From contig CANHNQ010000001.1 in the NCBI GenBank assembly GCA_947462095.1, forward strand, positions 12,929 through 76,928: DNA of 64,000 bases. The letters run 5' to 3'. The notes beneath the pieces were generated by a model. That model had not been told where the DNA came from, searched no databases, and saw only the letters and a program-made list of their open reading frames with translations. Numbering within the stretch: the stretch's first letter is position 1; the number at the start of each line of letters is the position of its first letter. This document shows, in pieces, positions 30,716-59,635 of the stretch. This DNA is from Gemmatimonadota bacterium (lineage in GTDB: Bacteria > Gemmatimonadota > Gemmatimonadetes > Gemmatimonadales > Gemmatimonadaceae). Both the position numbers and the translations under genes were made by a program.

Positions 30716-30815
30716 GGAACGACAAAGGCAAACCATGCGAAAGCGTGGGACGCAAAGCTGCGGGGCTACCGCGATCACACACTGGTGATTGCCACGCCGG
30801 CCGAGCCACCGAACG
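30716..30815 (+). ncRNA. Cyclic di-GMP-I (GEMM-I) riboswitch
   Basis: AAAGGCAAACCATGC-GAAA-GCGTGGGACGCAAAGCTGCGGGGCTA...GCCACCGA matches the GGCAAACC-GNRA-GGGACGCAAAGC...ACCGA consensus; about 25 nt upstream of ATG 30840. Confidence 0.88.
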
Positions 30816-30839
30816 CGATTGGACCCATCGGAGGGCCAG

Positions 30840-34743: not shown

Positions 34744-35900
34744 TGCCACGCGAGCGAGATGTCCGCACGCCGGACATCGAACGGGTAGCGGTCATGATCG
34801 AGTCCGATGGCCCCGGCGGAGCGGAGTCGATGGTCCTCGCGTTGGCCGACGGTCTCGCGGCGCGCGGCATCGACGTACGCCCCGCCGTTTTTGCCGGCGG
34901 TGAGGGTTGGCTCACTCAGCGTCTGCAGGCGGCCGGCCACTCGGTGTATCTCCCCAAGCTCTCGCGGCCGCTGGACGCCGGCGTGGCCGTACACATGGCC
35001 CGATGGGTGCGCGAGCAACGACTCAGCGTCCTGCATGCGCACGAGTTCACGATGGGGTTTTACGCGGGGGTAGCCGGTGCGCTTGCACGGACGCCGCACG
35101 TGCTGACCATGCACGGCGGAACCACCTTCGCCACCGCGATGCGACGTCGCGTCGCGCTCGGACTGTCCGCTCGGCGCGCCACGGCGGTTGTCGGCGTGTC
35201 CGAAAGTACGTGCGAGCATCTCGCCACTTCGCTGAACATGGCTGCGTCACGCGTCGAACTGGTGCCGAACGGTGTCAGGCACCGGCCGGGTGATCGCGAT
35301 GCGACGCGCGCAGCGCTCGGGCTGGGCCGCGCCGATCAACTCCTGCTGGCCGTGGGCAATCTGTACGAGGTGAAAGGGCACAGCACCCTCGTTGCCGCCG
35401 CTGCACAGGTGGTGCATCGTGAGGGGCTGCCACCATGGCGCATTGCGATCGCCGGGCGAGGCGATCAGGAACGATCGCTCCGTGAGCACATCACGGCGGC
35501 TGGTCTCGACGGCCACGTGCAGCTGCTTGGGTTGCGCAGTGATATTCCTGACTTGCTTGCCGCCGCGGATGGCTGGGTGATGCCCTCGCTGAACGAGGGG
35601 CTCCCCTTGGCGCTGTTGGAAGCGATGCTCGCGGGGCTGCCCGTCGTCGCATCGGCGGTTGGAGGCATCCCCACGCTCGTGCGGCCGGGTGAGACCGGCG
35701 TCCTGGTGCCGACGGGAAACGCCGAGGCCCTTGCGGACGCACTCGAGACGTTGCTTCGCCAGCCGCATCGCGCACAGGCATTGGCTCACGAAGGCAGGCG
35801 GCTTGTGAACGAGCAATACAGCTTTGATGCCATGATCGACCGCTATCTGTCGATCTATCGGCGCGCCATTCACTCTCGAAAGGGTCTTGGCCACGGCTGA
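34743..35900 (+). CDS. GT4 family glycosyltransferase
   Basis: GGAE, VPNG, VKGH, EGLPLALLEAM, VGGIP. Confidence 0.93.
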   Translation: MPRERDVRTPDIERVAVMIESDGPGGAESMVLALADGLAARGIDVRPAVFAGGEGWLTQRLQAAGHSVYLPKLSRPLDAGVAVHMARWVREQRLSVLHAHEFTMGFYAGVAGALARTPHVLTMHGGTTFATAMRRRVALGLSARRATAVVGVSESTCEHLATSLNMAASRVELVPNGVRHRPGDRDATRAALGLGRADQLLLAVGNLYEVKGHSTLVAAAAQVVHREGLPPWRIAIAGRGDQERSLREHITAAGLDGHVQLLGLRSDIPDLLAAADGWVMPSLNEGLPLALLEAMLAGLPVVASAVGGIPTLVRPGETGVLVPTGNAEALADALETLLRQPHRAQALAHEGRRLVNEQYSFDAMIDRYLSIYRRAIHSRKGLGHG

Positions 35901-36054
35901 GCAGATGTGGTGCAGCCCCGAACAGTACGAGCACGCGGAAATGCTTGACATCTTCATTCGGGAACCGAACCTCGTGGCACGTGCTCCACGCAACGGGCCC
36001 GTCAATGCGCCTCGAGAAACGAGCGAGGGCTTCGTGCGTGCCCGTGCGCGTCGG

Positions 36055-36288
36055 TCACGCGCGGCGCGCGGCCACGTACTTCCGGACGGAATCGTAGGAT
36101 GTAAGCAGCAGAGAATCATCAAGATCGATCTCCAGATCGAACTCGCTCTCGAGGGCTGTCATCAGGGTCACATGGGCCAACGAATCCCAAGACGGGGATA
36201 CCCCCTGTGCGGTCGAGGTGACATCGGCATCGGCCGGGAGTTCCAGCACCGCGCGGACCAGCTCCTGAAGTGTTACGTCGACAGACAT
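36055..36288 (-). CDS. Stand-alone acyl carrier protein (77 aa)
   Basis: WDSLAHVTLMTALESEFDLEI phosphopantetheine-Ser motif; acidic; TACCAT-N6-ATG start. Confidence 0.9.
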   Translation of the reverse strand: MSVDVTLQELVRAVLELPADADVTSTAQGVSPSWDSLAHVTLMTALESEFDLEIDLDDSLLLTSYDSVRKYVAARRA

Positions 36289-36305
36289 GATCGGATGGTA
36301 AATGG

Positions 36306-37460
36306 TCAGAATGATTCGTCGGAATAGCCATCGCCACGGGTGAGCCACCACGTGTCGAGGGTGGCGGGCCAGCGACCCTGCTGGGCATCATCACGCAAAA
36401 AGAAATGAATGGTGCCGCCCAGTGGAACAAACAGCTGACGGCGGAGGGCGGCCACCGCTGCCTGATGCGATGCCGACGCAATCACGGCGTCAGCCTTCAA
36501 CTCCGTGGCCATGGTGATCCCCGCGCGAATCGTCGCTGCGGCGGCGTCTCGGTCGCGCGGATCGAACAGGAAATCGGAGAAGCTGGCAACACGGATCCCT
36601 TGCAGTCGTGCGTCACCGGTTTCTCCCGGTTCGCGCACAATGGCCAAGCCCACCGGCTGACCCGCGCGCCGGGCGAATGCGAAGTGGTACTGGGCACCGG
36701 CGTCCACGGAGGCATAGCGGGTCAGTAGCGCATCGGCGTCGCGTACGGGGCCAGCAGCGATGCCGGTGCTCGCGCGGCGCCAGAGTGCCTCCAACTCCGC
36801 GGGGTCGGGTGCCGCAATCCGATCAACCCGGTCGCGTGAGCGCCCGTGGACTGCCTCGAGGCACGACAACCCGGCGGTGCCGAGGGCTCCGGATATGCCG
36901 GCCAGTTTGACGTCGCGAAGCAGTTGGAGGGCTTTCGGGGCCCACGACGGCAGCGGTCCTAGGGCCAGCAAGGACGGATCCAACTTCTCCAGAAGGGGGC
37001 CAATGCGCAGCGGGCGGAGGAAATTCCCCATAGCGCCGAAGGGCGCATACCCCAGCGCCCCGAAGAGCCGCTTGGAGCCTGAAGCGACCGTTACCGAACT
37101 GGCCAGAGGCATGGCCCGCGTAAGTGACTTGAGCACGTGAGCGCCGACCGGCCCGTTCCGGAACTCCGGAAGCACCATCAGCCCCTTGGCCCAATATCCA
37201 CCACGTTCGCTTTCCCCGTCCCAATGGCGAACCGGCAAGCTTGAACAGTACCCGATCACGCGGTCCTGCTGCAACGCAATGATCGTTGGTGGGTGCACCC
37301 CCGGCTCTACCGGATTCGATGCCGCGGCTTGCTGTCTGGAGACTAATACGTCCTGTGCTGTTCCAGTTGCGTTCCACACCACGCGAAAAAACTCCGCCAG
37401 CATGGTGGCGTGTTCATCAGTGGCGGCAATGACGCTGAGTCGTGTGGACGTGGTGTTCAT
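36306..37460 (-). CDS. Tandem GNAT-fold acyltransferase
   Basis: LMVLPEFRNGPVG motif A; C-terminal WWLTRGDG; directly upstream of the ACP gene. Confidence 0.7.
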   Translation of the reverse strand: MNTTSTRLSVIAATDEHATMLAEFFRVVWNATGTAQDVLVSRQQAAASNPVEPGVHPPTIIALQQDRVIGYCSSLPVRHWDGESERGGYWAKGLMVLPEFRNGPVGAHVLKSLTRAMPLASSVTVASGSKRLFGALGYAPFGAMGNFLRPLRIGPLLEKLDPSLLALGPLPSWAPKALQLLRDVKLAGISGALGTAGLSCLEAVHGRSRDRVDRIAAPDPAELEALWRRASTGIAAGPVRDADALLTRYASVDAGAQYHFAFARRAGQPVGLAIVREPGETGDARLQGIRVASFSDFLFDPRDRDAAAATIRAGITMATELKADAVIASASHQAAVAALRRQLFVPLGGTIHFFLRDDAQQGRWPATLDTWWLTRGDGYSDESF

Positions 37461-37541
37461 GCACAGGGAAGGAGTCCGGCGGTGACGGTGATGCGCCGGA
37501 ATTTCAGGCGACCACGAGTGACGAGTGGTCGAACTGGCTCG

Positions 37542-37994
37542 TCACGCAATCGACGGTGCCTGAATGAGTTCGATCAATTGGAGGTTGGGCATCATCAGGA
37601 ACGTGATGAGGCGCTGGTCGAAGGCGACGGCGGAAACAGGCTCCACCACAATGCGGGCTCGGACCGCGAGTGCGCCACGGAGCGCATCGTCAAAGTGCGG
37701 CGTTTCCCACGCCAGATGATACTGGCGGATCCCGCGGCGTAACCACGGGGCAAGGACCGTCCCGCTGACAATTTCGACGAGTAGTTCAAGGCGTGGTCCA
37801 CCGCCGATCAAAAATCGTCCACGGACGCCCTGAATCGGATCCTCAAAGTCTGGCCGTTCGACGGTGTATCCGAGCGCCGAGTAGACCGCCGCCTCGCGAT
37901 CGAGGTGCTTGCAGGCGATGCCGATATGGTGAAATACCGCCGGCACATCGAACAGTCTGGTGGTGTCGTCCGCTCCTTTCATTCCAACGATCAT
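37542..37994 (-). CDS. VOC superfamily protein (methylmalonyl-CoA epimerase-like)
   Basis: FHHIGIAC, DPIQGVRGRF, LELL, YHLAWE, LIELIQ (His/Glu/His/Glu metal ligands). Confidence 0.85.
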   Translation of the reverse strand: MIVGMKGADDTTRLFDVPAVFHHIGIACKHLDREAAVYSALGYTVERPDFEDPIQGVRGRFLIGGGPRLELLVEIVSGTVLAPWLRRGIRQYHLAWETPHFDDALRGALAVRARIVVEPVSAVAFDQRLITFLMMPNLQLIELIQAPSIA

Positions 37995-38199
37995 AGTATC
38001 TTCTCCCGATGATTACCAGCAGACGGCGGTGTGTCCCGCGGTCAGGGACCACCGCAGTGCCCACGGCGGTGAGTCATCCGCGCATTCGCCCGGTAGCGAC
38101 ACCGATCAGCCGGGTTGCCGCTCAGCTCATCCGGGTACTCGAGAATCAGCGTATGCTGGTATTGGGAGCGGTCCTTTCGCTGACCGGTGGAGCCCTACC

Positions 38200-39858
38200 G
38201 TGAACTTCTTACAAGCGCACGCGATCGTAAAGGCGTTCGCGGGCGGTCCTGCCTTGCCGTTCTTGGTGGGCATGTCGGGCACGGCTGAGCCGCTGAGCGT
38301 CTTCTTGTCCGCTGCCGCTGCGCAGCACGGATACGAGGCGACGTTGCGGTTCCTTCCCTTTAATACGCTGCAGCAGGCGGTTCACGAGTCGCGCGCGCCG
38401 GATGAGCACGAGTGCTTTGTCCTGATGCCCTGGGACCTGGTGCCCGAACTGGACTGGAGAACCGGGCTCTCGCGGACAGAATTGCAGGAACCCGAACTGC
38501 AGGCGCGCGCGCATGACCTACTGCGTCGGCTGGCCGAACGAGGCGCGCGCGTTGTATACGTGCCCGCACCATGCCCCCCCCTTTGGCTTGATCCGTTGCG
38601 CAACGCGTCGCTGCTCCAGTGGCTGCTCGGGGCGGCACTTCAGGTGCGCGCGACAGTGACCGACGAGAGCGTCTTCTCGCTGAGATCGTACCTCGCGTCG
38701 GGGCTCCCGATCGACACGACGCAGCTCGGTGCGGTCGCCTCGGTCATCGTGAGCGCGATCACCGACACGACCCGATTCCCTGAATCGCCGTCCGCCAAGG
38801 TACTCGTCACCGATCTCGACAACACGTTGTGGTCTGGCATCATCGGGGATGATGGCGTGGAGGGCATCGCCTATCGACCCGAGGGCAAAGGGTATCGGCA
38901 CTTCATCTACCAGACCGCGCTCCGTCGATTGCGCGAGTCCGGTGTGTTACTAGCGGTCGTGTCGAAGAACGACGAACAGCCGGCGCTCGCCCCGTTTGCG
39001 GTTGGCGACATGGTCCTCGACCGCGCGGACTTCGTCGCATTCTACGCGTCGTGGAACGCCAAGTCGGCCCAGATTCGGGCGCTCGCCGAGCAGCTCAACC
39101 TCGGCCTTGACGCGTTCGTCTTCGTGGACGACAACCCCGTCGAACTCGCCGAAGTTGAGCGCGAACTTCCGACCGTTCATCGACTGCAGTTTCCCAGTAG
39201 CGAGAAGGCCTTGCCGACGCTGCTCGCGGAGCTGACTCGGCTCTTCGCGCGAGCGGCCATCACCGACGAGGACAGAGAACGGACCGAACTGTATCAACGA
39301 CGGCTGCAGTCGGCCGTGCCGAGCGCTGCCAGCGGCGGAGACGTCTACGCGTTCCTTCGCGAGCTCGACATGACCATGACGATTCGTGATCGCTCAACTG
39401 GCGACCGGACCAGAGCGATCCAACTGATCAACAAGACCAATCAGTTCAATCTGAACGGTCGGCGGCTGGATGACAGCGAGGTGTCGGCCCAGCTCGCCGC
39501 CGGGAGTCGGCTGCTCACCGCGACACTCTCGGATCGGACAGGGAGTCACGGCGAGGTGCTGGCGGCGCTCATCGACAACGCCGGTTGCATCACCTCGATG
39601 GTGATGTCGTGTCGGGTGTTTCAGCGGCGCGTGGAGTTCGCGTTTCTCGCTTGGGTCGCGGCGCGCGCGTCGCTCGTGCGGAGCGCCGACTACGTCGAGA
39701 CCGATCGCAACGCGCCCGTCGGTCGATTCGTGTCCGAGCTCGGGGCGGCGAACGCAGAGGACGGACCGCTGCGCATTGATGGAGAGGCGATTGCCGCACG
39801 ATTCGCCCGCGACGTCGCGCTGTTCACGATCGTTGCCGACGAGAGCGCCTCCTGGTGA
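38200..39858 (+). CDS. FkbH-like HAD-IIIC glyceryl transferase/phosphatase
   Basis: TDLDNTLWSGIIGDDG, VSKN, WNAKS, FVDDNPVE, QLINKTNQFNL, MSCRV; GGAG RBS before GTG 38200. Confidence 0.93.
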   Translation: MNFLQAHAIVKAFAGGPALPFLVGMSGTAEPLSVFLSAAAAQHGYEATLRFLPFNTLQQAVHESRAPDEHECFVLMPWDLVPELDWRTGLSRTELQEPELQARAHDLLRRLAERGARVVYVPAPCPPLWLDPLRNASLLQWLLGAALQVRATVTDESVFSLRSYLASGLPIDTTQLGAVASVIVSAITDTTRFPESPSAKVLVTDLDNTLWSGIIGDDGVEGIAYRPEGKGYRHFIYQTALRRLRESGVLLAVVSKNDEQPALAPFAVGDMVLDRADFVAFYASWNAKSAQIRALAEQLNLGLDAFVFVDDNPVELAEVERELPTVHRLQFPSSEKALPTLLAELTRLFARAAITDEDRERTELYQRRLQSAVPSAASGGDVYAFLRELDMTMTIRDRSTGDRTRAIQLINKTNQFNLNGRRLDDSEVSAQLAAGSRLLTATLSDRTGSHGEVLAALIDNAGCITSMVMSCRVFQRRVEFAFLAWVAARASLVRSADYVETDRNAPVGRFVSELGAANAEDGPLRIDGEAIAARFARDVALFTIVADESASW

Positions 39859-40808
39859 AACGCCTGACTTTCCCCGAAGGCAAACGATTTGCGTTCTCGA
39901 TCGTGGACGACACCGATGTGGCCACCGTGGCGAACGTCGGTCCGATCTACGATCTCCTGAAGGCACTCGGCATGCGGACCACCAAGACGGTGTGGCCGTT
40001 CCGGTGGCATGGCGAAGGAAGCAATTTCGAATCCTCGGAAACGCTCGAGGATCCCGCATACCTCGCCTTCGTGCAACGCCTCGCCGCCGATGGGTTCGAG
40101 ATCGCCTCGCACGGCGCCACCATGGAATCGAGTGACCGCGCCACGACCGAGGCGGCGATGGAGCTCCATCGCGACCTGTTCGGCATGGTTCCGCGCCTGT
40201 ACGTGAACCACTCGTTCAACCGCGAAAACGTGTACTGGGGAACGGATCGCATCGACGATCCGGTGCTGAAGCGACTGTATGGGCGTGTGAACGGCAAGCC
40301 GGCAGGATACTACCAAGGCCATGTGCCCGGATCGCCATGGTGGTGGGGCGATCTCTGTCGTTCGCATCACGAGTATGTCCGCAACATGACGTTCAGCTCG
40401 CTGAACGTCCTTCGGGCCAATCCGTCGATGCCGTATGTCGATCCCTCGCGACCGCTGGTGCGCTCATGGTTTTCGTCGGCCGATGCCGACGACGGTCGGG
40501 AGTTCATCGATCTCGTGACGCCGGAGCGCGTGGATCAGCTGGAGGCCGAAGGGGGCGTCTGCATCATCTCCACGCACCTCGGCAAGCGCTATGTCGAGAA
40601 CGGCCGGGTACATCCTCAGGTCGAACGGGCGCTCCGGGACATTGCGCGGCGCCCGGGATGGTTCATACCGGTGTCGCCGCTGCTCGACTGGCTCCGGTCG
40701 CAGCAACCGGCAGGGACGGCGGGCGTCCTGCCGTCGGGGGAGTGGCGACGCATGCAATGGCGCTGGGCCATCGACCTCGTGCGACGCCGCCTGCAGCGAC
40801 GCCGATAG
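39855..40808 (+). CDS. NodB/polysaccharide deacetylase-like protein, coupled to fkbH
   Basis: FAFSIVDDTD, FEIASHG, VNHS, STHLG; GTGA overlap with the fkbH stop. Confidence 0.7.
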   Translation: MKRLTFPEGKRFAFSIVDDTDVATVANVGPIYDLLKALGMRTTKTVWPFRWHGEGSNFESSETLEDPAYLAFVQRLAADGFEIASHGATMESSDRATTEAAMELHRDLFGMVPRLYVNHSFNRENVYWGTDRIDDPVLKRLYGRVNGKPAGYYQGHVPGSPWWWGDLCRSHHEYVRNMTFSSLNVLRANPSMPYVDPSRPLVRSWFSSADADDGREFIDLVTPERVDQLEAEGGVCIISTHLGKRYVENGRVHPQVERALRDIARRPGWFIPVSPLLDWLRSQQPAGTAGVLPSGEWRRMQWRWAIDLVRRRLQRRR

Positions 40809-40811
40809 TCG

Positions 40812-41696
40812 TTACGGCCGACTGCCCAACTGCCCTCGTAGCCGCAACTGAAATCCATGCCGACTGATGCCGGCCGGCACGTTCCATCGCGGAATCTGTA
40901 ACCGCTCCGATGGCATGGCGGTGGGCAACCAGCCGCCGGTCACACGGAGCGCGTACTGGATCGTGGTTGTCCAGCGCGCGGCGTCCCCAAGCGAACCGGC
41001 AAGTCCGAAGGGATACGCCAGCACCGGTACGTACTGCGAGGGAAATCGCTGACGCAGCCAGCGATCGGCTTCCTCGATGTCATCGCTTGCCGCATCCGCA
41101 GGAAGCGCCCCGAGATTAGGATGTCGCATCGTGTGATTGCCGATCGTCACGAGCGTGGCGCTGGTGACCGCACGAAGCTGGGCATACTGGGCAATGCGCA
41201 ACTCGTCGCACGACGAGAGCGTCAGGTCTCCTTGAGCATGAGCCGGGACGCCGCCCTGCTGCCAGAGAAAACGTTCCCGATCGGTGTCGGACCACGCGCC
41301 CATGTCAGCCGCCGAATCCCAGTGTGGTACCGTCCCGAGAAGGGCCGGTGCCACGAAGATGGTGCATGGTGCCTGTGCCGCCGTACACGCTGGAACGGCG
41401 AGCGTCAGCGCCGATGCGTACGCATCGTCGAAGGTGATGGCCACTCGCCGTTCGCGGGGCGCATCGGTCGTCAGCAACTCCATCAGCGAAACGATCTCGG
41501 CTTCGTTGCGGATCATGCGCAGCTGCGCCTCGAACTTGTCCACCGGCAGGTGTAACGACCGATCGCCACGCGGTGCCCAATCCGAGGGTACCACATTGTG
41601 GTACGCGAGGATGAGCCGATCGCCCGGACGCGTGCGACGGGGCAGGGCGCACATCACGCGCTCGACCGCCCCACGCACCCATGAACGAAGCGCCAC
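40812..41696 (-). CDS. Polysaccharide deacetylase (IcaB-like)
   Basis: LAYHNV, ITFDDAY, GNHTMRHP, LAYPFG. Confidence 0.9.
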   Translation of the reverse strand: MALRSWVRGAVERVMCALPRRTRPGDRLILAYHNVVPSDWAPRGDRSLHLPVDKFEAQLRMIRNEAEIVSLMELLTTDAPRERRVAITFDDAYASALTLAVPACTAAQAPCTIFVAPALLGTVPHWDSAADMGAWSDTDRERFLWQQGGVPAHAQGDLTLSSCDELRIAQYAQLRAVTSATLVTIGNHTMRHPNLGALPADAASDDIEEADRWLRQRFPSQYVPVLAYPFGLAGSLGDAARWTTTIQYALRVTGGWLPTAMPSERLQIPRWNVPAGISRHGFQLRLRGQLGSRP

Positions 41697-41714
41697 GTCA
41701 GTGCGTCCGTGCGG

Positions 41715-42740
41715 TCAAGGAATTCCTGCGATCAGCCGTGCGCCGAGGGGGCCGGTCACCGCGATCGGAAGCTGCTGCCATACCTTCACCGCCAAGGCGA
41801 ATGCGCCTTGGTCGGGGTTCGGCGGGGCGCTCTCTTCGCCAGACTTGCTGTACTGATACCAGGCCAACGGTTCGTCACGCGAGCCCCACTGCCGCTTGAA
41901 TTTGTGCGTCCCCGATTCTGGCGTGCATCGACCAAAGTTGAATACGGCGAACTGGCGTTCACACGCCCGACGAATGAACGCGCCATACAACGCCATGTTC
42001 GGGGCCATCTTGGAGTATCGGCGCAGCGCCGACGCCCACGAAATCTCCACCTCGTTGCCGTTTTCGATCGCGAACCCACCAGCGATGGGAACGTCACCCA
42101 GATAAGCGACGCCGATCCAGGCGCGGTCGCCCAGCGCATCCGCGAGTCGTTCAAAAAACGCCTGACCGTGCGCCGGCGAACCGAGATCTCGCATGTGCTC
42201 GGCGAATACACGGTGAAACGCATTCGCCTGATCACGGCCGAAGCGTACCGTCACGCCGTCGCGCTCAGCGCGCCGAATCTGACTGCGCAGCTTGCTGTCG
42301 AAACCTTTGAACGTGGCATCGTAGTCACCCGCAACCAGATCGCATACGACCGTGATCTTCCGCGACACCAACGTCAGGTCGGTGTCGATGGGCCGCCGCG
42401 AACGGAGCTCCACCAACTTCGCACCGTTCGCGATGCTGGCCGCGTGGCCGCTCAACGCACGTTGCGCCGCCGGATCACCCAGCGGCCCGCCGTAACTCAC
42501 GAAGGGCGACGAGATCAGATAGTGACCGAACACCAGCGACCGCACGCGAACCAGCGGCAGCACACCGACCAGCGCATCGCCCTGATACGCCGCCAGATAC
42601 GGTGTTTCGTGCCCGTAGCTCCCCCGGTAGACCTCTCGCCATTCCCACCGGTGAAAGGTGCTGCCATCCGGAGCGCCTTCCACGAAGCGGTTCCACTCGT
42701 CGCCGTCAGTGGCCGGCACGATGCGCAGAGTGTTCGTCAT
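41715..42740 (-). CDS. FemAB-like GNAT protein, XrtA/PEP-CTERM system-associated
   Basis: GVLPL...LISSPFVSYGG, KLRSQIRRA, MRDLGSP, FNFGRC...KFKRQWG; ATGA overlap. Confidence 0.9.
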   Translation of the reverse strand: MTNTLRIVPATDGDEWNRFVEGAPDGSTFHRWEWREVYRGSYGHETPYLAAYQGDALVGVLPLVRVRSLVFGHYLISSPFVSYGGPLGDPAAQRALSGHAASIANGAKLVELRSRRPIDTDLTLVSRKITVVCDLVAGDYDATFKGFDSKLRSQIRRAERDGVTVRFGRDQANAFHRVFAEHMRDLGSPAHGQAFFERLADALGDRAWIGVAYLGDVPIAGGFAIENGNEVEISWASALRRYSKMAPNMALYGAFIRRACERQFAVFNFGRCTPESGTHKFKRQWGSRDEPLAWYQYSKSGEESAPPNPDQGAFALAVKVWQQLPIAVTGPLGARLIAGIP

Positions 42741-43639
42741 ACGGGCAAGGACGACATCGATGGCGAATGGTTCTGAAACGAGGTGAAGCGCCACGTGCGC
42801 AAGAGTGTGCGCAGTCGCGACTCCGCGGCACTCAGGCCACGGTAGTGACGAATCGTCGTGATCGTGCCGACCGCCAAACGCGGCTGGCCCGGGTCAATCT
42901 CCCACGGATGGATGTAGAACACCGCCGGACGTCCCGTGCGAAGCACGGCGCCGAGTCCCTGCCGGATGACCCACAACGGCAGCTGACGGAACCACCCGCC
43001 ACCGGCCACGGGCACGCGCGCGCCAAGCACTTCCCACACGGCCGGCGGATATTCGGCCAGCGGCCCTGATGCCGTGTCGAGCATGTGCGGATCGCAACGG
43101 CCACTGGCCGTGCCATAACCGCGACGCGCAATGGGGAAGCGACTTGAGTCGTAGCGGTAGCCTTCCTCCACCAAGACGCGAGCGGCCCACATCACGTCGT
43201 CGGTGAGGGAGAACGATGGCGCCCGATAGCCGGATACGGCCACGCCGGCGGCATCTTCGAGTACGGCTTTCGCCGAGCGTACGTCCTCGCGGAACGCCGC
43301 TTCGGTCATCGTAGGAATGCGCTGATGCCAGAAACCGTGCGACGCGACTTCGTGCCCGGCATCCGAAATCCGGCGAATCAAGTGCGGAAAGCGTTGAGCG
43401 ACCCAGCCAAGCGTAAAGAAGGTGCCGGTTGCTCCCGACTCATGTAGCAGCGCAAGAATACGGTCGGTGTTGCGCTCCACACGCGACTCGCGGTCATTCC
43501 ACGAGTCGCGGGACACGGTGGCGTCGAACGCGCTGACCTGAAACCAGTCTTCCACATCGACCGTGAAGACGGGTTGCGCCTGACCGGCCCCGGGCGGGTT
43601 CGCCGACCCGACATGCACACCGGGGCCAGTCTGCGTCAC
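42737..43639 (-). CDS. XrtA-system polysaccharide deacetylase
   Basis: FTVDVEDWFQV, TFFTLGW, HEVASHG, GYRAPSFS, YDSS, FYIHPWEIDPGQP; GTG 43639 overlaps the citrate synthase TGA. Confidence 0.92.
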   Translation of the reverse strand: MTQTGPGVHVGSANPPGAGQAQPVFTVDVEDWFQVSAFDATVSRDSWNDRESRVERNTDRILALLHESGATGTFFTLGWVAQRFPHLIRRISDAGHEVASHGFWHQRIPTMTEAAFREDVRSAKAVLEDAAGVAVSGYRAPSFSLTDDVMWAARVLVEEGYRYDSSRFPIARRGYGTASGRCDPHMLDTASGPLAEYPPAVWEVLGARVPVAGGGWFRQLPLWVIRQGLGAVLRTGRPAVFYIHPWEIDPGQPRLAVGTITTIRHYRGLSAAESRLRTLLRTWRFTSFQNHSPSMSSLPV

Positions 43640-45015
43640 TTTCGGATGCTGTCCTTGCGCGCGCGCGGGAACTTGTCGCTGAGCTGGTCCGTGTACTGAC
43701 GCTCGCCTTCGCCCACATAGATCTGCCGCGGGCGCGCGATCTTCTGCTCCTTGTCGAGAATCATCTCTTCCCACTGCGCCATCCACCCGGACACACGGGC
43801 CACCGCGAAGAGCACCGTGAAGAAGTCCGTCGGGAACGCCATCGTGCGATAGATCAGCCCCGTATAGAAGTCGACGTTCGGGTACAGCTTCCGGGCAATG
43901 AAGTAGTCGTCGCTTAGCGCGATGCGCTCGAGCTCGAGCGCGATCTCCAGGTCCTTGTCCATGCCGACCTGGGCGAACACTTCGTCGGCCAGCTTCTTCA
44001 CGATGCGCGCACGCGGATCGTAGCTCTTGTAGACGCGGTGGCCGAAGCCCATGAGGCGATGCTCGCCCTTGCCGCTCTTCACTGACTCGATGAACGCGGG
44101 GATGTTCTTCTTGTCGCCGATGTCGCTGATCATGCGCAACACCGCTTCGTTGGCACCGCCGTGCAACGGGCCAAAGAGCGCCGCGATGCCGCCCGCGACG
44201 GCCGAGAACGGATCCACGCCGCTTGAGCCGATCGCCCGCACCGCACTGGTGCTGCAGTTCTGTTCGTGGTCGGCATGAAGAATAAACAGCACTTCGAGCG
44301 CCTTCACGAATACCGGATTCGCTTCGTACTTGGGCTCCGACATCCGGGCGATCATCGACAGGAAGTTCTCGGTGTAGCCGAGATCGTTGTCGGGATAGAT
44401 GAACGGCAAGCCCTTCACATGGCGATACGCGAACGCAGCGATCGTCGGCAGCTTCGCCATCAGGCGGATCATCGAGATATAGCGCTGCTGCGGATCGTGA
44501 ATGTCGCGCGCCTGCGGATAGAAGCTCGACAGGGCGGCCGTGGCGCTGCACATCATCGACATCGGATGCGCGTCGTACCGGAACCCTTCGAGGAACTTCC
44601 GGATATTCTCGTGCACGTAGGTGTGGAACGTGATGTCGTGCACCCACGTGTCGTACTGCCCCTGGTTCGGCAGTTCGCCGTGACGCAGCAGGTACGCCAC
44701 TTCAAGGAACGTCGCGTTCTCCGCGAGCTGCTCGATCGGATAGCCGCGATAGCGCAGAATGCCTTTATCGCCGTCGATGAACGTGATCGCACTCCGGCAC
44801 GAGGCGGTATTCATGAACGCCGGATCGTAGCTCAGCATGCCGAACTCGCCCGACTCTCGCTTGATCGCGCGCAGGTCCATGGCACGAACGTACGTGTCTC
44901 CCTCGGGCCCTTCGGTGCGGACGGTCGTGCTGTAGCTGCTTCCGGTCCGGCTGTCGCGGATCTCGAGGGCGTCGGTGGCGGCCGGGGTGGGGGTGGTGGT
45001 GCTGGACTGACTCAT
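43636..45015 (-). CDS. gltA: Citrate synthase (type II-like)
   Basis: YRGYPIEQL, HADHEQNCST, GPLHGGANE, GFGHRVYK..DPRA, YPNVDFY, IARPRQIY. Confidence 0.96.
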   Translation of the reverse strand: MSQSSTTTPTPAATDALEIRDSRTGSSYSTTVRTEGPEGDTYVRAMDLRAIKRESGEFGMLSYDPAFMNTASCRSAITFIDGDKGILRYRGYPIEQLAENATFLEVAYLLRHGELPNQGQYDTWVHDITFHTYVHENIRKFLEGFRYDAHPMSMMCSATAALSSFYPQARDIHDPQQRYISMIRLMAKLPTIAAFAYRHVKGLPFIYPDNDLGYTENFLSMIARMSEPKYEANPVFVKALEVLFILHADHEQNCSTSAVRAIGSSGVDPFSAVAGGIAALFGPLHGGANEAVLRMISDIGDKKNIPAFIESVKSGKGEHRLMGFGHRVYKSYDPRARIVKKLADEVFAQVGMDKDLEIALELERIALSDDYFIARKLYPNVDFYTGLIYRTMAFPTDFFTVLFAVARVSGWMAQWEEMILDKEQKIARPRQIYVGEGERQYTDQLSDKFPRARKDSIRK

Positions 45016-45072
45016 CGCAAACGGCTCCTTAGGGTGACGACCATCGGGGATCCCAGAAAGATATGCAGAGGT

Positions 45073-46179
45073 TCAGCGCCTTGGGGCCGAGGACAACCGC
45101 CCGTCCCGACACAGCTGGGGGGCGAGCTTCCCGGCCACCTCTGCCGCCACCAGCACTGCCCCAGCGTCGTTGTAATGGGTAAAGTCGGCGAAGGCTGGGA
45201 CCGCCGACGATCGCAGGGCCATCAACGGATCGACCACCAATGCGCCGGAATCGGCACCGACCTTGAGGGTGCGTTCGGCGGCAAGGTCGTCGAATGTCCG
45301 GATCGCGGCACCGGTGTACAACGGGTAGAACCGCTCCCACGCGCGAAGGAACCGCTGGCTCTCCGCCGAGGTGACCTCCGCAAATCGATTCCGGTGGATC
45401 ACGAGCACGGGTTCAATCCCGGCCCGTTTGACATCCCCCACGAGTGCCCGGAGATCCTTCTCAAACGCATCGAGTCGGTCGATCGGCACGGCGCTGCGGG
45501 CTTCCACCTTCGCCTGAGCCCTGGTGCGCTTCGTGTCGAGCACGCGGACCAGATCCAGCACGGGGACGGGAACCGCGCGCTTGATGGCATCACGGAACCG
45601 AGGCCGGGCACGCGAACGCCACGGGGACGGGGGGCTCACGACGGCGAACGTCGGCGTTGCCGCCGTCGGAAGGTCAGCGCCGAGATACTGCATCGGCGTC
45701 GGATAGTAGAGCACCGCGCGTGGATGCCGCGGAAGAATCCGTTGTGTGATGTCCTGCCGGACCGTCGGCAGCGACATCCCGGCGAATGCGGCATTGAGGA
45801 CCACGATTGGCTGTCGGCACTCCGTTCCCAGACGGCGCTCAAGCTGACGGGGCCATTCCCCGCCGGCACGCTCGTACAGACCGAATGTCTCCGACGCGCC
45901 CGTCGTCACGAGGACGATGGCATCGGGTGGCAGCGGCTGCAGCACTTCCGGCCCCCGAAAACCCCACGAATTGATGCGAAACTGCCGGAACTGCGTGCCC
46001 GCCCGGGCGTGCATGCCCAGCGAGTCCCGTACGCTCAGTTCGTCGAGCGAGGTTTCCGGCGCACCGAATGGCACGCCGAACTGCGCCCAGTCATCGAGGC
46101 GAACGGTCAGCTCAAGCGAGGCCGTACCGACGAGTCCAAGGACCATCGCCCAGCCGATACGGGAAAGGCGCGTGGCCAT
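45073..46179 (-). CDS. SGNH/GDSL-fold protein with N-terminal anchor (AlgJ/DltD-like partner of the MBOAT)
   Basis: INSWGFRG, GASETFG (block I Ser), NAAFAG (block II), DFTH (DxxH); TGATG overlap with the MBOAT. Confidence 0.8.
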   Translation of the reverse strand: MATRLSRIGWAMVLGLVGTASLELTVRLDDWAQFGVPFGAPETSLDELSVRDSLGMHARAGTQFRQFRINSWGFRGPEVLQPLPPDAIVLVTTGASETFGLYERAGGEWPRQLERRLGTECRQPIVVLNAAFAGMSLPTVRQDITQRILPRHPRAVLYYPTPMQYLGADLPTAATPTFAVVSPPSPWRSRARPRFRDAIKRAVPVPVLDLVRVLDTKRTRAQAKVEARSAVPIDRLDAFEKDLRALVGDVKRAGIEPVLVIHRNRFAEVTSAESQRFLRAWERFYPLYTGAAIRTFDDLAAERTLKVGADSGALVVDPLMALRSSAVPAFADFTHYNDAGAVLVAAEVAGKLAPQLCRDGRLSSAPRR

Positions 46180-47576
46180 CAGAATTGGAAGTACAGGAAG
46201 GGCGACGGACGTGCCGTGACGATCAGTGCGAGCGCGGCGCCGCACACGGCCGCAAACGAGATCCGACGGGCCGGCGTCCACTCGTGCCGCATCGCAAACG
46301 CATTCGGACCGCGAAGGCTCCACCAGGCGGCGATGGACATGACGGCGAGCACGAGGGGGAGCGCGATCTCAGACTCGATGCTTCCGGCCGTTGGTACGAA
46401 CATCCGGCGAATCACGCCAGTGGCCTGAGAGAAGCTGGTGGCGCGGAAGAAGATCCACCCGACGACCGATGCACTGAACATCAGGGCACGCTGTATCGCG
46501 ATCGGCATGGCGTCCCACGTCTGGCGATAGACCCGGTAGGCGCACAGCAGCACGCCGTGGTAGAACCCCCAGAAAACGAACGTCCACGACGCGCCGTGCC
46601 ACAGCCCACCAAAGAGCATGGTGTACATCAGGTTGCGGTACGTGAGGAACGTACCGTTCCGGTTCCCGCCCAGTGGGATGTATAGGTAGTCCCGCAGGCA
46701 GCTCGAGAGCGAGATGTGCCACCGCTCCCAGAAATCGGAGGGATTCAGCGCCTGGTACGGCGAATTGAAATTTTGCGGAATGCGGATGCCGAACAGCAGT
46801 CCGATGCCGACCGCCATGGTGCTGTAGCCGGAGAAATCGAAGAGCAGCTGAAACGTGTATCCCAGCACGGCAAGCCAGGCACCGCCGGTCGACAGCTGCT
46901 CCCAGTTCGCGAACGACGGGTCGACGAGCGCGGCGAGGGTGTCGGCGATCAGCACCTTCTCGATCAGGCCAATGCAGAAGAACGAAAGCCCACGCCCGAT
47001 CCATTGAGTCCGGCTGCTGGTGCCGATCTTCTCGAGGTCCTCTTCAATCTGACGGAATCGCACGATCGGACCCGCCACCAGCTGGGAGAAGAGCGACACA
47101 TACGTCGCAAATTCCCAGAGGTTCCGGGTCGGCGTGATCGTCCCGCGATACGCATCGACGATGTAGCTGATCGTGTGAAATGTGTAGAACGAAATGCCGA
47201 TCGGCAGAATGATGTCGAGGTGCGGCACGGCGATGTCTGCGCCAGCAAAGCCGCTCACCGATCGGATCGTATCCAGCGCAAAGTTGGTGTACTTGAAGAA
47301 TCCGAGCAGGAGCAGATCGACCGCAATCGGGATGATCAGGAACCATTTTCGTTCACGAGATCCGACAGCGGTCCGCAGCATGCCGAGGCCCGCACCGAAA
47401 CTCACCAGCGTGGAAAACGCCATGAGCAGAACGAACCGGGGATCCCACCAGCCGTAAAACACATAACCGGAGATCGTCAGCCACACGTATCGCGACTGCG
47501 CGTTCGGCAAGAGCCAGAACACCGCGTACACGATGGGCAGAAAGGCAAAAATGAACTCGATGCTGTTGAAAAGCAT
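46179..47576 (-). CDS. MBOAT O-acyltransferase (AlgI/DltB-like)
   Basis: MLFNS, LPIGISFYTF, DFSGYS, FWERWHISLS, GLWHGA catalytic His, C-terminal FLYFQF. Confidence 0.95.
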   Translation of the reverse strand: MLFNSIEFIFAFLPIVYAVFWLLPNAQSRYVWLTISGYVFYGWWDPRFVLLMAFSTLVSFGAGLGMLRTAVGSRERKWFLIIPIAVDLLLLGFFKYTNFALDTIRSVSGFAGADIAVPHLDIILPIGISFYTFHTISYIVDAYRGTITPTRNLWEFATYVSLFSQLVAGPIVRFRQIEEDLEKIGTSSRTQWIGRGLSFFCIGLIEKVLIADTLAALVDPSFANWEQLSTGGAWLAVLGYTFQLLFDFSGYSTMAVGIGLLFGIRIPQNFNSPYQALNPSDFWERWHISLSSCLRDYLYIPLGGNRNGTFLTYRNLMYTMLFGGLWHGASWTFVFWGFYHGVLLCAYRVYRQTWDAMPIAIQRALMFSASVVGWIFFRATSFSQATGVIRRMFVPTAGSIESEIALPLVLAVMSIAAWWSLRGPNAFAMRHEWTPARRISFAAVCGAALALIVTARPSPFLYFQF

Positions 47577-47582
47577 GTCGCG

Positions 47583-48410
47583 CTAGACGCGTGGGAGCGA
47601 GATCGCAAACGAGAAAGCCGACCCGCACGGAGCGCGCTCCGCGTAGCGCAGCGTGCTCTGCATCTGCCCCAGGAGGTCCCCACACAGGCGGAGCCCCAGA
47701 CCGGCGCTGGTAACGGGGCCGGTCGCGTCGAAGGCGCCGTTCACGAAGCGATCGCGCAGTGGAGCCGGAAGCCCGCTGCCACTGTCGGAGATGGTGAACA
47801 CGACGCTGGACGCCCCGTCGCTGGACGCCGCGATATCGACCACTCCGCTGTCGGTGAACTTGAGCGCGTTGGTCACCAGATTGAGGATCACCCGCTGCAA
47901 CGCGGCGGGATGCCCCAGCCGACGCTCGTCGCGCGGGGCACTGCATCGCAGCGTCAGTCCCTTCTCCTCGGCGATCGGCTGGACCAGCGCGCGAACGCTA
48001 CGTAGGGTCTCGTCGATGGAGAACGCCACCGGCGCGTCACCGACCAGCCGCGTCGTGCCGCGCGATAACTCCAGCGCATCATCGGCAAACGCCGACAGTC
48101 CAAAGGCGGCGCTGTACACAAGTGACAGCTGGCGCTCTTGCTGCGGCGTGACCGGGCCCGAGCGTCCGCTTCGCAGTTGCTCGACCAGGACCAGAATGGA
48201 GCTGAGTGGCGAGCGGATGTCGTGCGTCAGCCCCAAGAGGAGTTCGTGCGCATTGACCGCGGTAACGGAGGCCGTTGCCGCGTCGGGACCGTCGAGGACA
48301 TCGACGGCCGCGACCCGCGCGCCCTCGGCGACGAGCGCGGCGATCGCCTCGTCGCTGACGTCGACGAGGTTAGTCGGCTGTGCCTGAGAGGATGTCGCGC
48401 CGGAAGCCAT
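47583..48410 (-). CDS. Histidine kinase lacking an evident sensor domain
   Basis: H-box THDIRSPL, N-box NLVTNALKFT, DSGSG, GLGL; start uncertain. Confidence 0.85.
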   Translation of the reverse strand: MASGATSSQAQPTNLVDVSDEAIAALVAEGARVAAVDVLDGPDAATASVTAVNAHELLLGLTHDIRSPLSSILVLVEQLRSGRSGPVTPQQERQLSLVYSAAFGLSAFADDALELSRGTTRLVGDAPVAFSIDETLRSVRALVQPIAEEKGLTLRCSAPRDERRLGHPAALQRVILNLVTNALKFTDSGVVDIAASSDGASSVVFTISDSGSGLPAPLRDRFVNGAFDATGPVTSAGLGLRLCGDLLGQMQSTLRYAERAPCGSAFSFAISLPRV

Positions 48411-49857
48411 GCTTCTCCATGAGACGGTAAAGAGTGGTGCGGTCGATGCCCGCCAGTCGCGCGGCCTTCGACATGTTGCCGCCGGCCCGAGTGGTCAGGC
48501 GTGACAGATATTCCTTCTCGAACTGCGCGATCAGGTTGTCCTTGGCCATGTGGAAGGCATCGTTCATGATCGTGAGCGGTAGTCCCGCGTCCGCCACGGG
48601 TCCGGCGTCATCGTCGTACACAGGAATATCGTTCGGCTCAATGGGGCGACTGCCATCGGCGATCACGGCGAGATGCTCAATGACGTTCTGTAGCTCACGC
48701 ACGTTGCCGCGCCACGGGCGCGACTGCAGAAACGCGATCGTCTCAGGCGTGAGCTGGGGAGCCGGCGCACCACTCGTGCGGTGGCGCTCCCACGAACGTT
48801 TCAGGAAGAATTCGGCCAGCAGCGGGATATCTTCGAGCCGCTTCCGGAGCGGTGGGAGCTTGATGGGCACCACACGCAGGCGGTAAAACAGGTCTTCTCG
48901 CAGGAGCCCCTGCTGCACCGCTTCCTGCGGGTCGCGGTTCGTGGCGGAAATGAAGCGCACATCGACCACCGCATCCTGCGTCTCGCTGCCCAAGCGCCGC
49001 ACCACGCCATCCTGCAGCACGCGAAGCAACTTGGCCTGTAACGGCATGGTCATTTCGGTGAGCTCGTCAAGAAACAGCGTGCCGCCGTTGGCGACTTCCA
49101 GCAAACCGGCTTTGTCGCGGTCGGCACCCGTGAAGGCGCCTTTGCGATAGCCGAACATTTCCGATTCCAGCAGGTTGTCCGGCAGCGCCGCGCAGTTGAG
49201 GGGCACCAGCTTGTGCGCCGTTCGGCGGCTGTGCCGGTGAATGAACTGGGCGATCATCTCCTTGCCGGTGCCGCTCTCGCCGCTGATCATCACGGAGGCG
49301 TCGGTGGCGGCCACCTTCTGGGCCAGTTCGACCGCTTTCCGGAACGACGGCGACACCCCCAGAAGCGCCATGGGTTCGCCGGCTCCGTTCTGCGTGACCA
49401 ACGATGGCCTGATCTGCTCGCGGCTCTCCCGATTGGCGTGTACGGCATGCGCCGCACGTCCAACCAGTACCTGCAGATGTGACGCCGAGAACGGCTTCGG
49501 CAGGTAGTCCCAAGCGCCGGCGCGCAGCGCCTCGATGCTCGAGGCCACGCTGGGGTTGCCGGTCATCATCACGACGATCGCATCCTTATGAGTCTCGATC
49601 GCGGCCTTCAGAACCTCCATCCCCGAGATGGGGGCCATGTAGAGGTCGGTCAGGATCAGGTCGAACTTGCGCCGTCGTACGAGGTCCACCGCCTCCTCGC
49701 CGCGGCCGGCGGTCACCACGACATGCCCGTCCATCTGGAGGACCGATGCGCATCCTTCCCGGAGCGTCCGATCATCGTCGGCCACAAGGATGCGGAGGCC
49801 GGTGCCCTTGTCGGGCACGGCAGTTGCGCTGGAGTCGGAGAGGAACGGGTCGGTCAT
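48370..49857 (-). CDS. Sigma54-dependent response regulator (NtrC/PrsR-like)
   Basis: REC (ADDD, TDLYM, KPF), GESGTGKE, GAFTGA, FLDE, WRGNVREL, Fis-type HTH. Confidence 0.96.
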   Translation of the reverse strand: MTDPFLSDSSATAVPDKGTGLRILVADDDRTLREGCASVLQMDGHVVVTAGRGEEAVDLVRRRKFDLILTDLYMAPISGMEVLKAAIETHKDAIVVMMTGNPSVASSIEALRAGAWDYLPKPFSASHLQVLVGRAAHAVHANRESREQIRPSLVTQNGAGEPMALLGVSPSFRKAVELAQKVAATDASVMISGESGTGKEMIAQFIHRHSRRTAHKLVPLNCAALPDNLLESEMFGYRKGAFTGADRDKAGLLEVANGGTLFLDELTEMTMPLQAKLLRVLQDGVVRRLGSETQDAVVDVRFISATNRDPQEAVQQGLLREDLFYRLRVVPIKLPPLRKRLEDIPLLAEFFLKRSWERHRTSGAPAPQLTPETIAFLQSRPWRGNVRELQNVIEHLAVIADGSRPIEPNDIPVYDDDAGPVADAGLPLTIMNDAFHMAKDNLIAQFEKEYLSRLTTRAGGNMSKAARLAGIDRTTLYRLMEKHGFRRDILSGTAD

Positions 49858-50216
49858 AAGGGAGGTACTGAGTCGGGACGTGCCCGCAGCACGCGGGAAC
49901 CACAGGATTTTCGCACGTTGATGTACACTGCGGCGGGAATGAGACACTCCCCGATGGTTCTCTGCAACAGTAGCGGTGGTGCAGCGAATGTGTTGCTTCC
50001 GTCTACATTGAATACGACCAGGGGACGGAATCGTCAATAATTAACGTGGTGTCGGTACTACAGTTCTCGTGTCATGACCGCAACAGTATGGAAAAAGTAA
50101 CAGCGGTGTAGCGACGGAGCATCGTGGTGTGTGCGCCTACGCATCACTGTGTTGCGGATCAATTAGCTTAACCGTCATATCACCGGCACTTCGTCAGACC
50201 TCAGCCCGCTCAACCA

Positions 50217-56540: not shown

Positions 56541-56731
56541 GTGGATCGTGTGACCACGCGGCGAATGACGAGTGGTCCGACGTCCGGGACGGCATCGATC
56601 CCCTCGGTCGCCGAGGGCGTTTTCGCGTGCACGACGTGACCGACGTATGATATGGTGAGTCGTGCCGCTGGCGGGTGTACCGTCGCCGTTCGCCACGTTT
56701 GCTCCGCTCTGACTCGAAGGCTGCTGATGAC

Positions 56732-58276: not shown

Positions 58277-58316
58277 GTCTTCGGCGCGGCGCGCCGACCC
58301 CCGCCTTCCTCGGGGA

Positions 58317-59486: not shown

Positions 59487-59635
59487 CGGTATCAACGAGC
59501 CTCGGGAAGCGAACGATCGCGGCGGTGCGGCGGGCGCCCAGCGGGAAATTCCCGCGTTGCCGCCTCCGCGTGGAGTGCGTCTCTCCACGTGTACAGTATG
59601 TTGCATTCTCATTCTGCCAACCCTCTCCGCGACTC

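Follow-up and report, generated by a model that had tools for sequence, protein, structure and literature searches.

A probable FkbH-carrier protein glycerate-loading cassette and a probably separate MBOAT-SGNH module in a Gemmatimonadota exopolysaccharide locus

We analyzed putative polysaccharide acylation genes in a stretch of 64,000 nucleotides (nt) from a Gemmatimonadota bacterium (assembly GCA_947462095.1, contig CANHNQ010000001.1, positions 12,929 to 76,928 of the forward strand), referred to below as the window. The named homologs of the window come from Gemmatimonadaceae and Gemmatimonadales, consistent with a Gemmatimonadota-like genome. The genes lie in an exopolysaccharide locus that encodes a Wzy-like ligase, GT4 and GT2 glycosyltransferases, Wzc, an export protein, a priming transferase, an exosortase and a two-component system. 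An earlier note on this DNA had proposed that four proteins of the locus, an FkbH-type protein, a stand-alone acyl carrier protein (ACP), an MBOAT and an SGNH protein, form a single relay that glycerylates the exopolysaccharide. Our analysis suggests that FkbH/ACP and MBOAT/SGNH are probably two modules, not one relay. The features (lengths in amino acids, aa) are as follows.

33262..63096, no strand assigned: host locus, XrtA/PEP-CTERM-type Wzy-dependent exopolysaccharide genes (Pfam and NCBIfam matches)
36055..36288, minus strand: stand-alone ACP, 77 aa (PP-binding 19.4 bits, WDS36L)
36306..37460, minus strand: tandem GNAT acyltransferase, 384 aa (predicted NMT/Eis fold)
37542..37994, minus strand: VOC protein of the glyoxalase I / methylmalonyl-CoA epimerase superfamily (Glyoxalase_4 40.5 bits)
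38200..39858, plus strand: FkbH-type HAD-IIIC protein, long form, 552 aa (TIGR01686 243.8 bits)
39855..40808, plus strand: CE4/NodB-fold deacylase-like protein, 317 aa (predicted fold, weak DUF2334)
41715..43570, minus strand: XrtA-system FemAB-like protein (TIGR03019, 266.1 against a cut-off of 260.35) and XrtA polysaccharide deacetylase (TIGR03006, 325.3 against 276.2)
43636..45015, minus strand: citrate synthase (NF004126 above cut-off)
45073..46179, minus strand: membrane-anchored SGNH protein, 368 aa (TGATG overlap with the MBOAT stop)
46179..47576, minus strand: AlgI/PatA-type MBOAT, 465 aa (PF03062 94.6 bits, FLYFQF end)

The four genes of the proposed relay run in three transcription directions along the locus (minus, plus, minus), and FkbH is separated from MBOAT by 6.3 kb with five other genes in between. 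The interval also holds the genes for the VOC protein, the 384-aa GNAT and the 317-aa CE4-like protein, all of which the earlier note had missed. On the minus strand the VOC, GNAT and ACP genes form one run in this order, with ACP as the last gene, starting 17 nt past the GNAT gene. On the plus strand the FkbH stop codon overlaps the start of the CE4-like gene, an arrangement of translational coupling. The CE4-like gene, two deacetylase-family genes and the genes for the FemAB-like protein and citrate synthase lie between FkbH and the SGNH-MBOAT pair, which belongs to a separate minus-strand run (response regulator, kinase, MBOAT, SGNH, citrate synthase, XrtA deacetylase, FemAB-like). An assembly artefact is ruled out by another assembly, where the stretch is 98% identical over 3,036 nt, with all frames intact and the order FkbH/VOC/GNAT/ACP kept. 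GC content gives no clear anomaly pointing to recent import of the cassette (0.60-0.65 in its genes, 0.60-0.68 in their neighbors), and a scan for promoters and terminators returned chance-level numbers (1 against 2.4; 11 against 8.9).

The FkbH-type protein starts with a GTG codon, is encoded by a single copy in the assembly and clears the TIGR01686 cut-off of 146.65 bits by a wide margin. Residues D205-x-D207, K288, D310-D311 and S470-C471-R472 are invariant in all 23 aligned homologs, as are the motifs DLDNT and MSCR; the MSCR cysteine is the thioester-forming residue of the family. The sole solved relative is BF1531 (3SLR, E 6e-25). The ACP scores just below the Pfam PP-binding cut-off (19.4 against 20.8 bits). 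Its residues W34, S36 and E47 are invariant in 18/18 aligned sequences, and a Sinorhizobium meliloti relative clears the same cut-off at 21.3. The cassette ACP differs from the housekeeping ACP encoded on contig C3, and contig C48 carries a phosphopantetheinyl transferase gene. The two genes of the earlier note are confirmed, with their motifs intact. Across other loci, an ACP gene is found within 1.5 kb of FkbH in 35 of 56 genome loci and 58 of 80 metagenome loci. Judging from family score, motifs and context, FkbH likely loads the ACP with glycerate taken from 1,3-bisphosphoglycerate, and we hold it highly probable that the glycerate-loading unit as such is real. It could be argued that FkbH is a plain HAD phosphatase or that the cassette is inactive, and that its genes came together by chance in a polysaccharide locus prone to variation: gene order is rearranged, FkbH is divergent from ACP and the ACP score falls short of the cut-off. 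The invariant cysteine, the recurrent proximity of ACP to FkbH and the frames that remain intact in both assemblies make this the least probable of the explanations considered here.

Glyceryl loading from FkbH to an ACP is known from polyketide and tetronate pathways (available text of PMC9057759 and PMC7489565). Like the glyceryl-ACP synthases FkbH, OzmB and Mad7, the window protein scores above the TIGR01686 cut-off, has the DxD and MSCR motifs and is accompanied by a dedicated stand-alone ACP. It differs from OzmB (366 aa) by its extra N-terminal domain, and from the methoxymalonyl-ACP and tetronate pathways by its setting, a polysaccharide locus on a contig without polyketide synthase (PKS), non-ribosomal peptide synthetase (NRPS) or ketosynthase matches. 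The absence of such enzymes, and of a DltA-type one, had been stated in the earlier note and holds for the whole contig C1: all eight AMP-binding matches in the genome lie elsewhere, so no DltA-type adenylation enzyme is encoded there, and ketoacyl-synthase, FabH-like and condensation matches are absent both from contig C1 and from the Pfam matches of the open reading frames (ORFs) of the window. Supply of a PKS, NRPS or tetronate pathway was rejected on this basis. With no PKS or NRPS nearby, FkbH and its dedicated ACP most likely provide a surface glycan with an acyl group derived from glycerate.

The predicted recipient of the ACP-bound acyl group is the tandem GNAT. Its AlphaFold model (mean predicted local distance difference test, pLDDT, 91.2) comprises two GNAT domains. 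It is most similar to N-myristoyltransferase (NMT; Z 21.3, root-mean-square deviation (rmsd) 4.8, 309 residues aligned), followed by Eis (Z 18.7, rmsd 4.4, 295 aligned). Both NMT and Eis are amine acyltransferases, and both use a C-terminal carboxylate as the base. The window GNAT has a C-terminal Phe, as do 44 of 50 relatives, in which this residue follows a conserved W-W-L-x-R-G-D. In a query against plasmids, the GNAT gave weak Azospirillum matches (23-25% identity); the one region examined lies in a polysaccharide locus, where no FkbH was annotated within 7 kb.

The gene coupled to FkbH encodes a protein with a NodB-type barrel (AlphaFold pLDDT 91.3) that resembles the CE4 deacetylase 1Z7A (Z 16.8, rmsd 3.1, 224 aligned) and ArnD (Z 14.1), with no match to Polysacc_deac_1. 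CE4 enzymes share an Asp-Asp motif 1, a His-x-x-x-His motif 2 and a catalytic His in motif 5. In the CE4-like protein D18, D19, H86, H119 and H241 are invariant in 17/17 sequences; motif 2 is without its second His, for which H119 may stand in. We predict from the model that this protein is a sugar de-N-acetylase. Since a simple hydropathy scan reveals no hydrophobic segment in either the GNAT or the CE4-like protein, both are probably cytoplasmic. Taken together, the two folds point to an amino sugar being deacetylated and then N-acylated from the ACP. A comparable pairing is provided by NodB, NodA and NodF, a CE4 deacetylase and an ACP-dependent N-acyltransferase acting on an amino sugar: there, too, cytoplasmic deacetylation is followed by N-acylation from a dedicated ACP. 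The window proteins differ in having no NodA or NodB model match, and in the tandem NMT/Eis-fold GNAT, the three-carbon glycolytic acid and the exopolysaccharide context.

The genes that FkbH travels with were surveyed in a sample of 300 other genomes of the phylum, 50 of which encode FkbH, and in a GTDB-wide scan with the GNAT alignment (58 loci with 8-kb flanks, 31 of them well flanked, having 4 kb or more on either side). GNAT orthologs are present in seven of the 300 genomes. FkbH is adjacent in six, and the seventh locus is cut by a contig end. The 58 GTDB loci contain ACP in 48 cases, the CE4-like gene in 45, FkbH in 43, SGNH in 12, MBOAT in 4 and VOC in 1; in the well-flanked subset the numbers are 29 for ACP, 28 each for the CE4-like gene and FkbH, 8 for SGNH and 3 for MBOAT. 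Three genomes estimated to be 95-98% complete (G151, G049 and G090) have GNAT, ACP and FkbH and zero PF03062 matches. The CE4-like gene occurs in 10/300 genomes, eight of them FkbH-positive and one more with a broken FkbH adjoining, although this survey is partly circular, as four of the ten matches were in the query alignment. Around the 16 FkbH sequences nearest to that of the window (in a tree that left out 8 of 141 FkbH domains, those shorter than 850 nt), the DNA examined contains the CE4-like gene in 14 cases, ACP in 12, GNAT in 11 and MBOAT in none, with four of the loci shorter than 6 kb. One of these 16, in G158, resembles the window in having the MBOAT ortholog at a distance of about 10 kb.

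Two side observations concern this cassette. Both FkbH and the CE4-like gene are fragmented in G138 (L192:8459-10423). SGNH genes adjoin the GNAT cassette in L215, L234, L079 and other loci, including genomes without a detectable MBOAT; an esterase role is one possibility.

The MBOAT, the only one in the assembly, has a G-L-W-H327-G motif aligning with G-F-W-H-G of DltB and ends in F-L-Y462-F-Q-F (F460-F465); an F-x-Y-x-x-F ending occurs in just 1 of 3796 stop-to-stop frames of at least 300 aa in the genome. The adjacent SGNH protein has no Pfam match itself, and 13 of 16 aligned members match Lipase_GDSL_2 (PF13472). Its S96, N129 and H335 are invariant and D332 nearly so. The catalytic His, the FLYFQF end and the translationally coupled SGNH gene described in the earlier note are all in place. 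The pair shares with PatA-PatB and AlgI-AlgJ the catalytic His, the C-terminal F-x-Y-x-x-F shuttle and the coupled SGNH, usually with no carrier nearby (accessible parts of PMC12148441), but the window MBOAT falls into its own Gemmatimonadota exopolysaccharide clade. The Tyr shuttle of MBOATs is already known, and PatA, which has the same C-terminal motif, uses acetyl-CoA (same source, same parts). For this reason the FLYFQF end is silent on the acyl donor. In common with the Dlt system (DltA, DltC, DltB, DltX, DltD), the locus encodes a carrier protein, an MBOAT, a Tyr shuttle and an SGNH protein. Unlike Dlt, it has no DltA, the shuttle is fused to the MBOAT, the score against the DltB equivalog model TIGR04091 is 171.6 (cut-off 375) and the carrier is linked to GNAT rather than to MBOAT.

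In the relay proposed earlier, the glyceryl group would pass from ACP to Tyr462 of the MBOAT, on to the SGNH serine and finally to a polysaccharide hydroxyl, either alone or beside a GNAT route. That every part lies within one locus, with the sole MBOAT of the assembly, speaks for it, as does DltB, whose acyl donor is a carrier protein (PMC12148441, available text). The distribution of the MBOAT points the other way. Its orthologs (at least 53% identity) are found in 19/300 genomes, 4 with FkbH and 15 without (Fisher p 0.53, kinship ignored), and 14 of the 19 loci have an SGNH ortholog (phmmer 174-435 bits) beside the MBOAT. In regions of up to 20 kb around the 19 orthologs, ACP genes occur solely in the loci of FkbH-positive G203 and G282; none lies near the MBOAT in the 15 FkbH-negative loci. 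In G265 (97% complete), which has no FkbH match, the closest ortholog (81%) lies in the same order kinase-MBOAT-SGNH-citrate synthase. G094, at 100% completeness, has the MBOAT-SGNH pair and one PP-binding gene only, which is on a different contig. A tree of 52 MBOATs (fragments below 1,100 nt excluded) recovers the window clade with support of 1.000. Of the 17 other members of this clade, 13 belong to genomes that lack FkbH. All 14 full-length MBOATs located within 3.5 kb of FkbH fall outside this clade. Together with the persistence of the GNAT-ACP-FkbH cassette in genomes without a detectable MBOAT and the use of acetyl-CoA by PatA, this makes the relay unlikely in this genome, where the presence/absence counts and the MBOAT tree led us to downgrade it. 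The idea that FkbH and ACP load this particular MBOAT is not supported: the pair belongs to the GNAT and CE4 cassette. Co-occurrence of FkbH/ACP with MBOAT/SGNH is not borne out for the window clade and is seen with other MBOAT clades. The tallies of MBOAT orthologs, like those of VOC given below, include genomes flagged as unpublished (G057, G097, G157 and G182), on which none of the specific claims depends.

Our preferred interpretation, to which we assign a probability of roughly 55%, is that glyceryl-ACP serves to N-acylate a deacetylated amino sugar through GNAT and CE4 in the cytoplasm, and that MBOAT-SGNH O-acetylates. The genomic phosphopantetheinyl transferase would first prime Ser36 of the ACP. 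FkbH would then make a 3-phosphoglyceryl thioester, strip the phosphate and hand the glyceryl group to the ACP, in line with the transfer, dephosphorylation and ACP chemistry known for OzmB (PMC9057759, in the part available). Optional tailoring on the ACP may follow. The CE4-fold protein would free the amine on an N-acetyl sugar, either nucleotide- or undecaprenyl-linked, and GNAT would N-acylate this amine, probably with its conserved C-terminal carboxylate as the base. Separately, MBOAT-SGNH, probably a module of the PatA/AlgI type, would O-acetylate the same polymer, with acetyl-CoA as the donor and the acetyl group passing through Tyr462 and Ser96.

A number of observations weigh against this interpretation. 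The four MBOATs that flank GNAT elsewhere belong to the window clade (54-69% identity), and in L223, L226 and L263 the genes MBOAT, SGNH, GNAT, ACP, FkbH and CE4 form one same-strand run in this order, which places the MBOAT-SGNH pair directly upstream of the cassette, as the relay would have it. Because all four share a single GNAT sub-lineage (in a tree excluding GNATs below 1,000 nt), the adjacency may represent one event. An 8-kb flank would miss a spacing like that in the window, where GNAT and MBOAT are 8.7 kb apart. Within the same genus, FkbH is present in 3/5 genomes with the MBOAT ortholog and in 2/8 without it. The window SGNH shares 28-39% identity with SGNHs of FkbH-ACP operons, and in L110 and L112, members of the wider FkbH clade, FkbH-ACP is paired with an MBOAT; the narrow 17-member FkbH clade is weakly supported (0.185). 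In addition, 3 of the 31 well-flanked GNAT loci have no nearby FkbH, G228 has the CE4-like gene without FkbH, and the FkbH search can miss broken copies, as it did that of G138. Finally, the samples include kin, so that their members are not independent, and overlap in part.

FkbH and ACP might alternatively serve another cytoplasmic transferase (the FemAB-like or Acetyltransf_6 proteins of the locus), GNAT might perform O-acylation, or the target might be the glycan of PEP-CTERM proteins or a lipid instead of the bulk exopolysaccharide. The FemAB-like protein and the XrtA deacetylase do form a second pair of a deacetylase and a GNAT-like protein, a minor alternative acceptor, and in G203 and G282 an FkbH of a different clade lies directly upstream of these two genes with no orthologous GNAT. 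Moreover, FkbH-ACP pairs elsewhere adjoin LbH, AAC(3), single GNAT or WcbI genes, and the products of the window locus include an exosortase and a Wzy protein resembling O-glycosylation ligases. The position of ACP only 17 nt downstream of the tandem GNAT, a link recurring in 48/58 loci, and the GNAT fold matches to amine acyltransferases render these alternatives rather improbable compared with N-acylation by the tandem GNAT.

H23, E70, H93 and E142 of the VOC protein align with the metal-ligand positions (H-E-H-E site) of 2QH0/3HDP, the closest solved structures, deposited as lactoylglutathione lyase / glyoxalase I, which we take to be Clostridium acetobutylicum CA_C2192. A profile of 12 FkbH-neighboring VOCs scores 134 bits with 2QH0/3HDP and 48-66 bits with methylmalonyl-CoA epimerases, and the window protein reaches 28.9 bits with the methylmalonyl-CoA epimerase model TIGR03081 (cut-off 114.95). 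Contig C18 carries another VOC gene, of housekeeping type. With the subfamily profile, no FkbH-negative genome among the 300 scores above 87 bits, the level of the near-universal housekeeping homolog; as the four top non-self matches were in the alignment, this survey is partly circular and its informative part is the absence from FkbH-negative genomes. The gene is optional in the cassette (1/58 GNAT loci, 4/56 genome and 7/80 metagenome FkbH loci), and a plasmid query with VOC returned nothing. Glycerate derived from 1,3-bisphosphoglycerate is the D form, and the glyceryl groups of gellan are L-glyceryl; a C2 epimerase would therefore explain L-glyceryl groups such as those of gellan. We consider VOC a candidate glyceryl-ACP C2 epimerase giving L-glyceryl, and this would be the weakest step of the proposed pathway.

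In 8 of 9 cassettes scanned for a gene between ACP and FkbH, this gene encodes a fusion of a MaoC dehydratase and an SDR reductase (about 370 aa; L213, L217, L222, L224, L232, L081, L093 and L097), predicted from sequence to convert glyceryl to lactyl. The window cassette has the VOC gene in place of the fusion. A lactyl group could also arise in the window if VOC were a true glyoxalase I acting on the adduct of methylglyoxal with the thiol of holo-ACP, in keeping with the deposited names of its nearest structures, or if some other enzyme reduced glyceryl-ACP. Neither seems at all likely. The MaoC-SDR gene is missing from the window cassette, and FkbH would be redundant, although the VOC subfamily is found only in FkbH-positive genomes. 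Furthermore, in Clostridium flagellar glycosylation islands the CA_C2192, ACP and FkbH orthogroups have an identical seven-strain distribution (PMC13317340 supplement 2).

Outside the window clade, FkbH-ACP is combined with a variety of transferases. Among the 80 metagenome loci, 17 have an MBOAT within 3.5 kb of FkbH, as do 3 of the 56 genome loci. In G257, a genome of the same genus, a VOC > FkbH > ACP > SGNH > MBOAT operon occupies the site of the window's MBOAT-SGNH pair, between kinase and citrate synthase. On pSymB of S. meliloti 2011 (L071:4215-10245, at about 631-637 kb of NC_020560), VOC, MBOAT, a 409-aa gene without a Pfam match, ACP and FkbH follow one another on one strand, the MBOAT ends in FLYQGF and an RTX-repeat gene comes next; given the genetically tractable host, this operon is a good test system for an O-glyceryl relay. 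These operons, which resemble Dlt and favor the relay in general, indicate that an FkbH-ACP-MBOAT glyceryl relay likely exists in other genomes, with other MBOAT clades. To that extent the earlier proposal holds. In other loci FkbH or FkbH-ACP is followed by genes of LbH (6 loci) or AAC(3)-family (4) proteins, a single GNAT, WcbI or weak CE4 matches. Since its neighbors range from MBOAT to LbH, AAC(3), single GNAT and WcbI, FkbH-ACP behaves as an exchangeable donor module, as far as gene neighborhoods tell. In seven loci from one family of the phylum (L039, L044, L045, L047, L049, L055 and L088), FkbH-ACP precedes a gene with weak Polysacc_deac_1 matches, and neither MBOAT nor tandem GNAT was detected in the DNA fetched. 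A broader reading, which we put forward tentatively, is that FkbH-ACP is a plug-in glycerate donor docking onto several unrelated transferases, that the VOC subfamily, with the crystallized C. acetobutylicum 'glyoxalase I' among its members, comprises glyceryl-ACP epimerases making L-glyceryl, and that the exopolysaccharide of the window locus is L-glyceroylated, possibly through N- as well as O-acylation. If the crystallized 'glyoxalase I' does epimerize glyceryl-ACP, it would be reassigned.

A published precedent for the chemistry is the Campylobacter jejuni flagellin locus cj1295-cj1304, which shares with the window fkbH, an 'epimerase', ACPs, an N-acyltransferase-type gene and a glycerate-derived group (available text of PMC7099621, PMC3068675 and PMC13317340). 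Strain 11168 makes a di-O-methylglyceric-acid pseudaminic acid, a sugar tied to cj1295 alone (PMC3068675, available text). The region encodes ACPs, a SAM-domain protein, an aminoglycoside-acetyltransferase-type protein and the FkbH protein cj1302 (parts of PMC13317340 supplement 1 and of PMC7099621), and the 'epimerase' gene cj1301 adjoins cj1302 (PMC7099621, same parts). Two strains without intact cj1302 or cj1301 also are without the dimethylglyceric-acid sugar; the authors draw no such link in the part of PMC7099621 available, and other strain differences could explain it. The region differs from the window in its transferase family and in the presence of methylation, and cj1295 alone was tested genetically. 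As far as their available text goes, none of the three papers assigns FkbH a role in providing glycerate.

For glyceroyl groups on bacterial glycans, no assigned gene was found in the literature searched. The glyceroyl gene of Tannerella forsythia is called elusive (accessible parts of PMC6120980 and PMC5378307), a 2015 review names only one verified acetyltransferase for gellan (PMC4443731, likewise in part), and sanxan acyltransferases, including an AlgI-like gene, are listed without a mechanism in the available text of PMC5399355. A search that did not extend to patents, most subscription journals and the 2023 Dlt mechanism paper yielded no link between FkbH and polysaccharide acylation. 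FkbH with MBOAT returned two aeruginosin-family papers, in one of which the enzymes act at unrelated steps; FkbH with polysaccharide and acyl carrier protein returned unrelated papers only, and a gellan glyceryl acyltransferase in Sphingomonas returned none. No Sphingomonas FkbH was among the plasmid matches listed. What is new here is a variant of known FkbH/ACP chemistry, apparently combined with GNAT and CE4 in an exopolysaccharide locus. An FkbH-ACP donor with interchangeable transferases makes glyceroyl-gene questions testable with small soluble proteins, and the GNAT route needs no membrane enzyme. Also, FkbH, ACP and MBOAT in one locus are not proof of a Dlt-like relay, so the MBOAT clade needs checking.

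Several further features of the locus may be mentioned. Within the polysaccharide locus, the citrate synthase gene follows the SGNH gene after 57 nt. Between it and the histidine kinase gene, relatives carry different acylation cassettes (MBOAT-SGNH in the window, G265 and G158; VOC-FkbH-ACP-SGNH-MBOAT in G257), and for this reason the site looks like an exchange hotspot for such cassettes. A 636-aa ORF (42737-44647, minus strand) was dismissed as an overlap artefact: its last ~280 residues are the XrtA deacetylase, and the remainder covers citrate synthase DNA read in another frame. A 282-aa ORF (58342-59190, plus strand) in the interval from exosortase to ATP-grasp matches nothing in Pfam or NCBIfam. 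The DNA just upstream of the locus encodes large Kelch-repeat and Ig-like / polysaccharide-lyase-like proteins at 26789-32807 (plus strand) and a pyrroloquinoline quinone (PQQ) dehydrogenase at 24771-26765; these are possibly surface proteins of the exosortase system.

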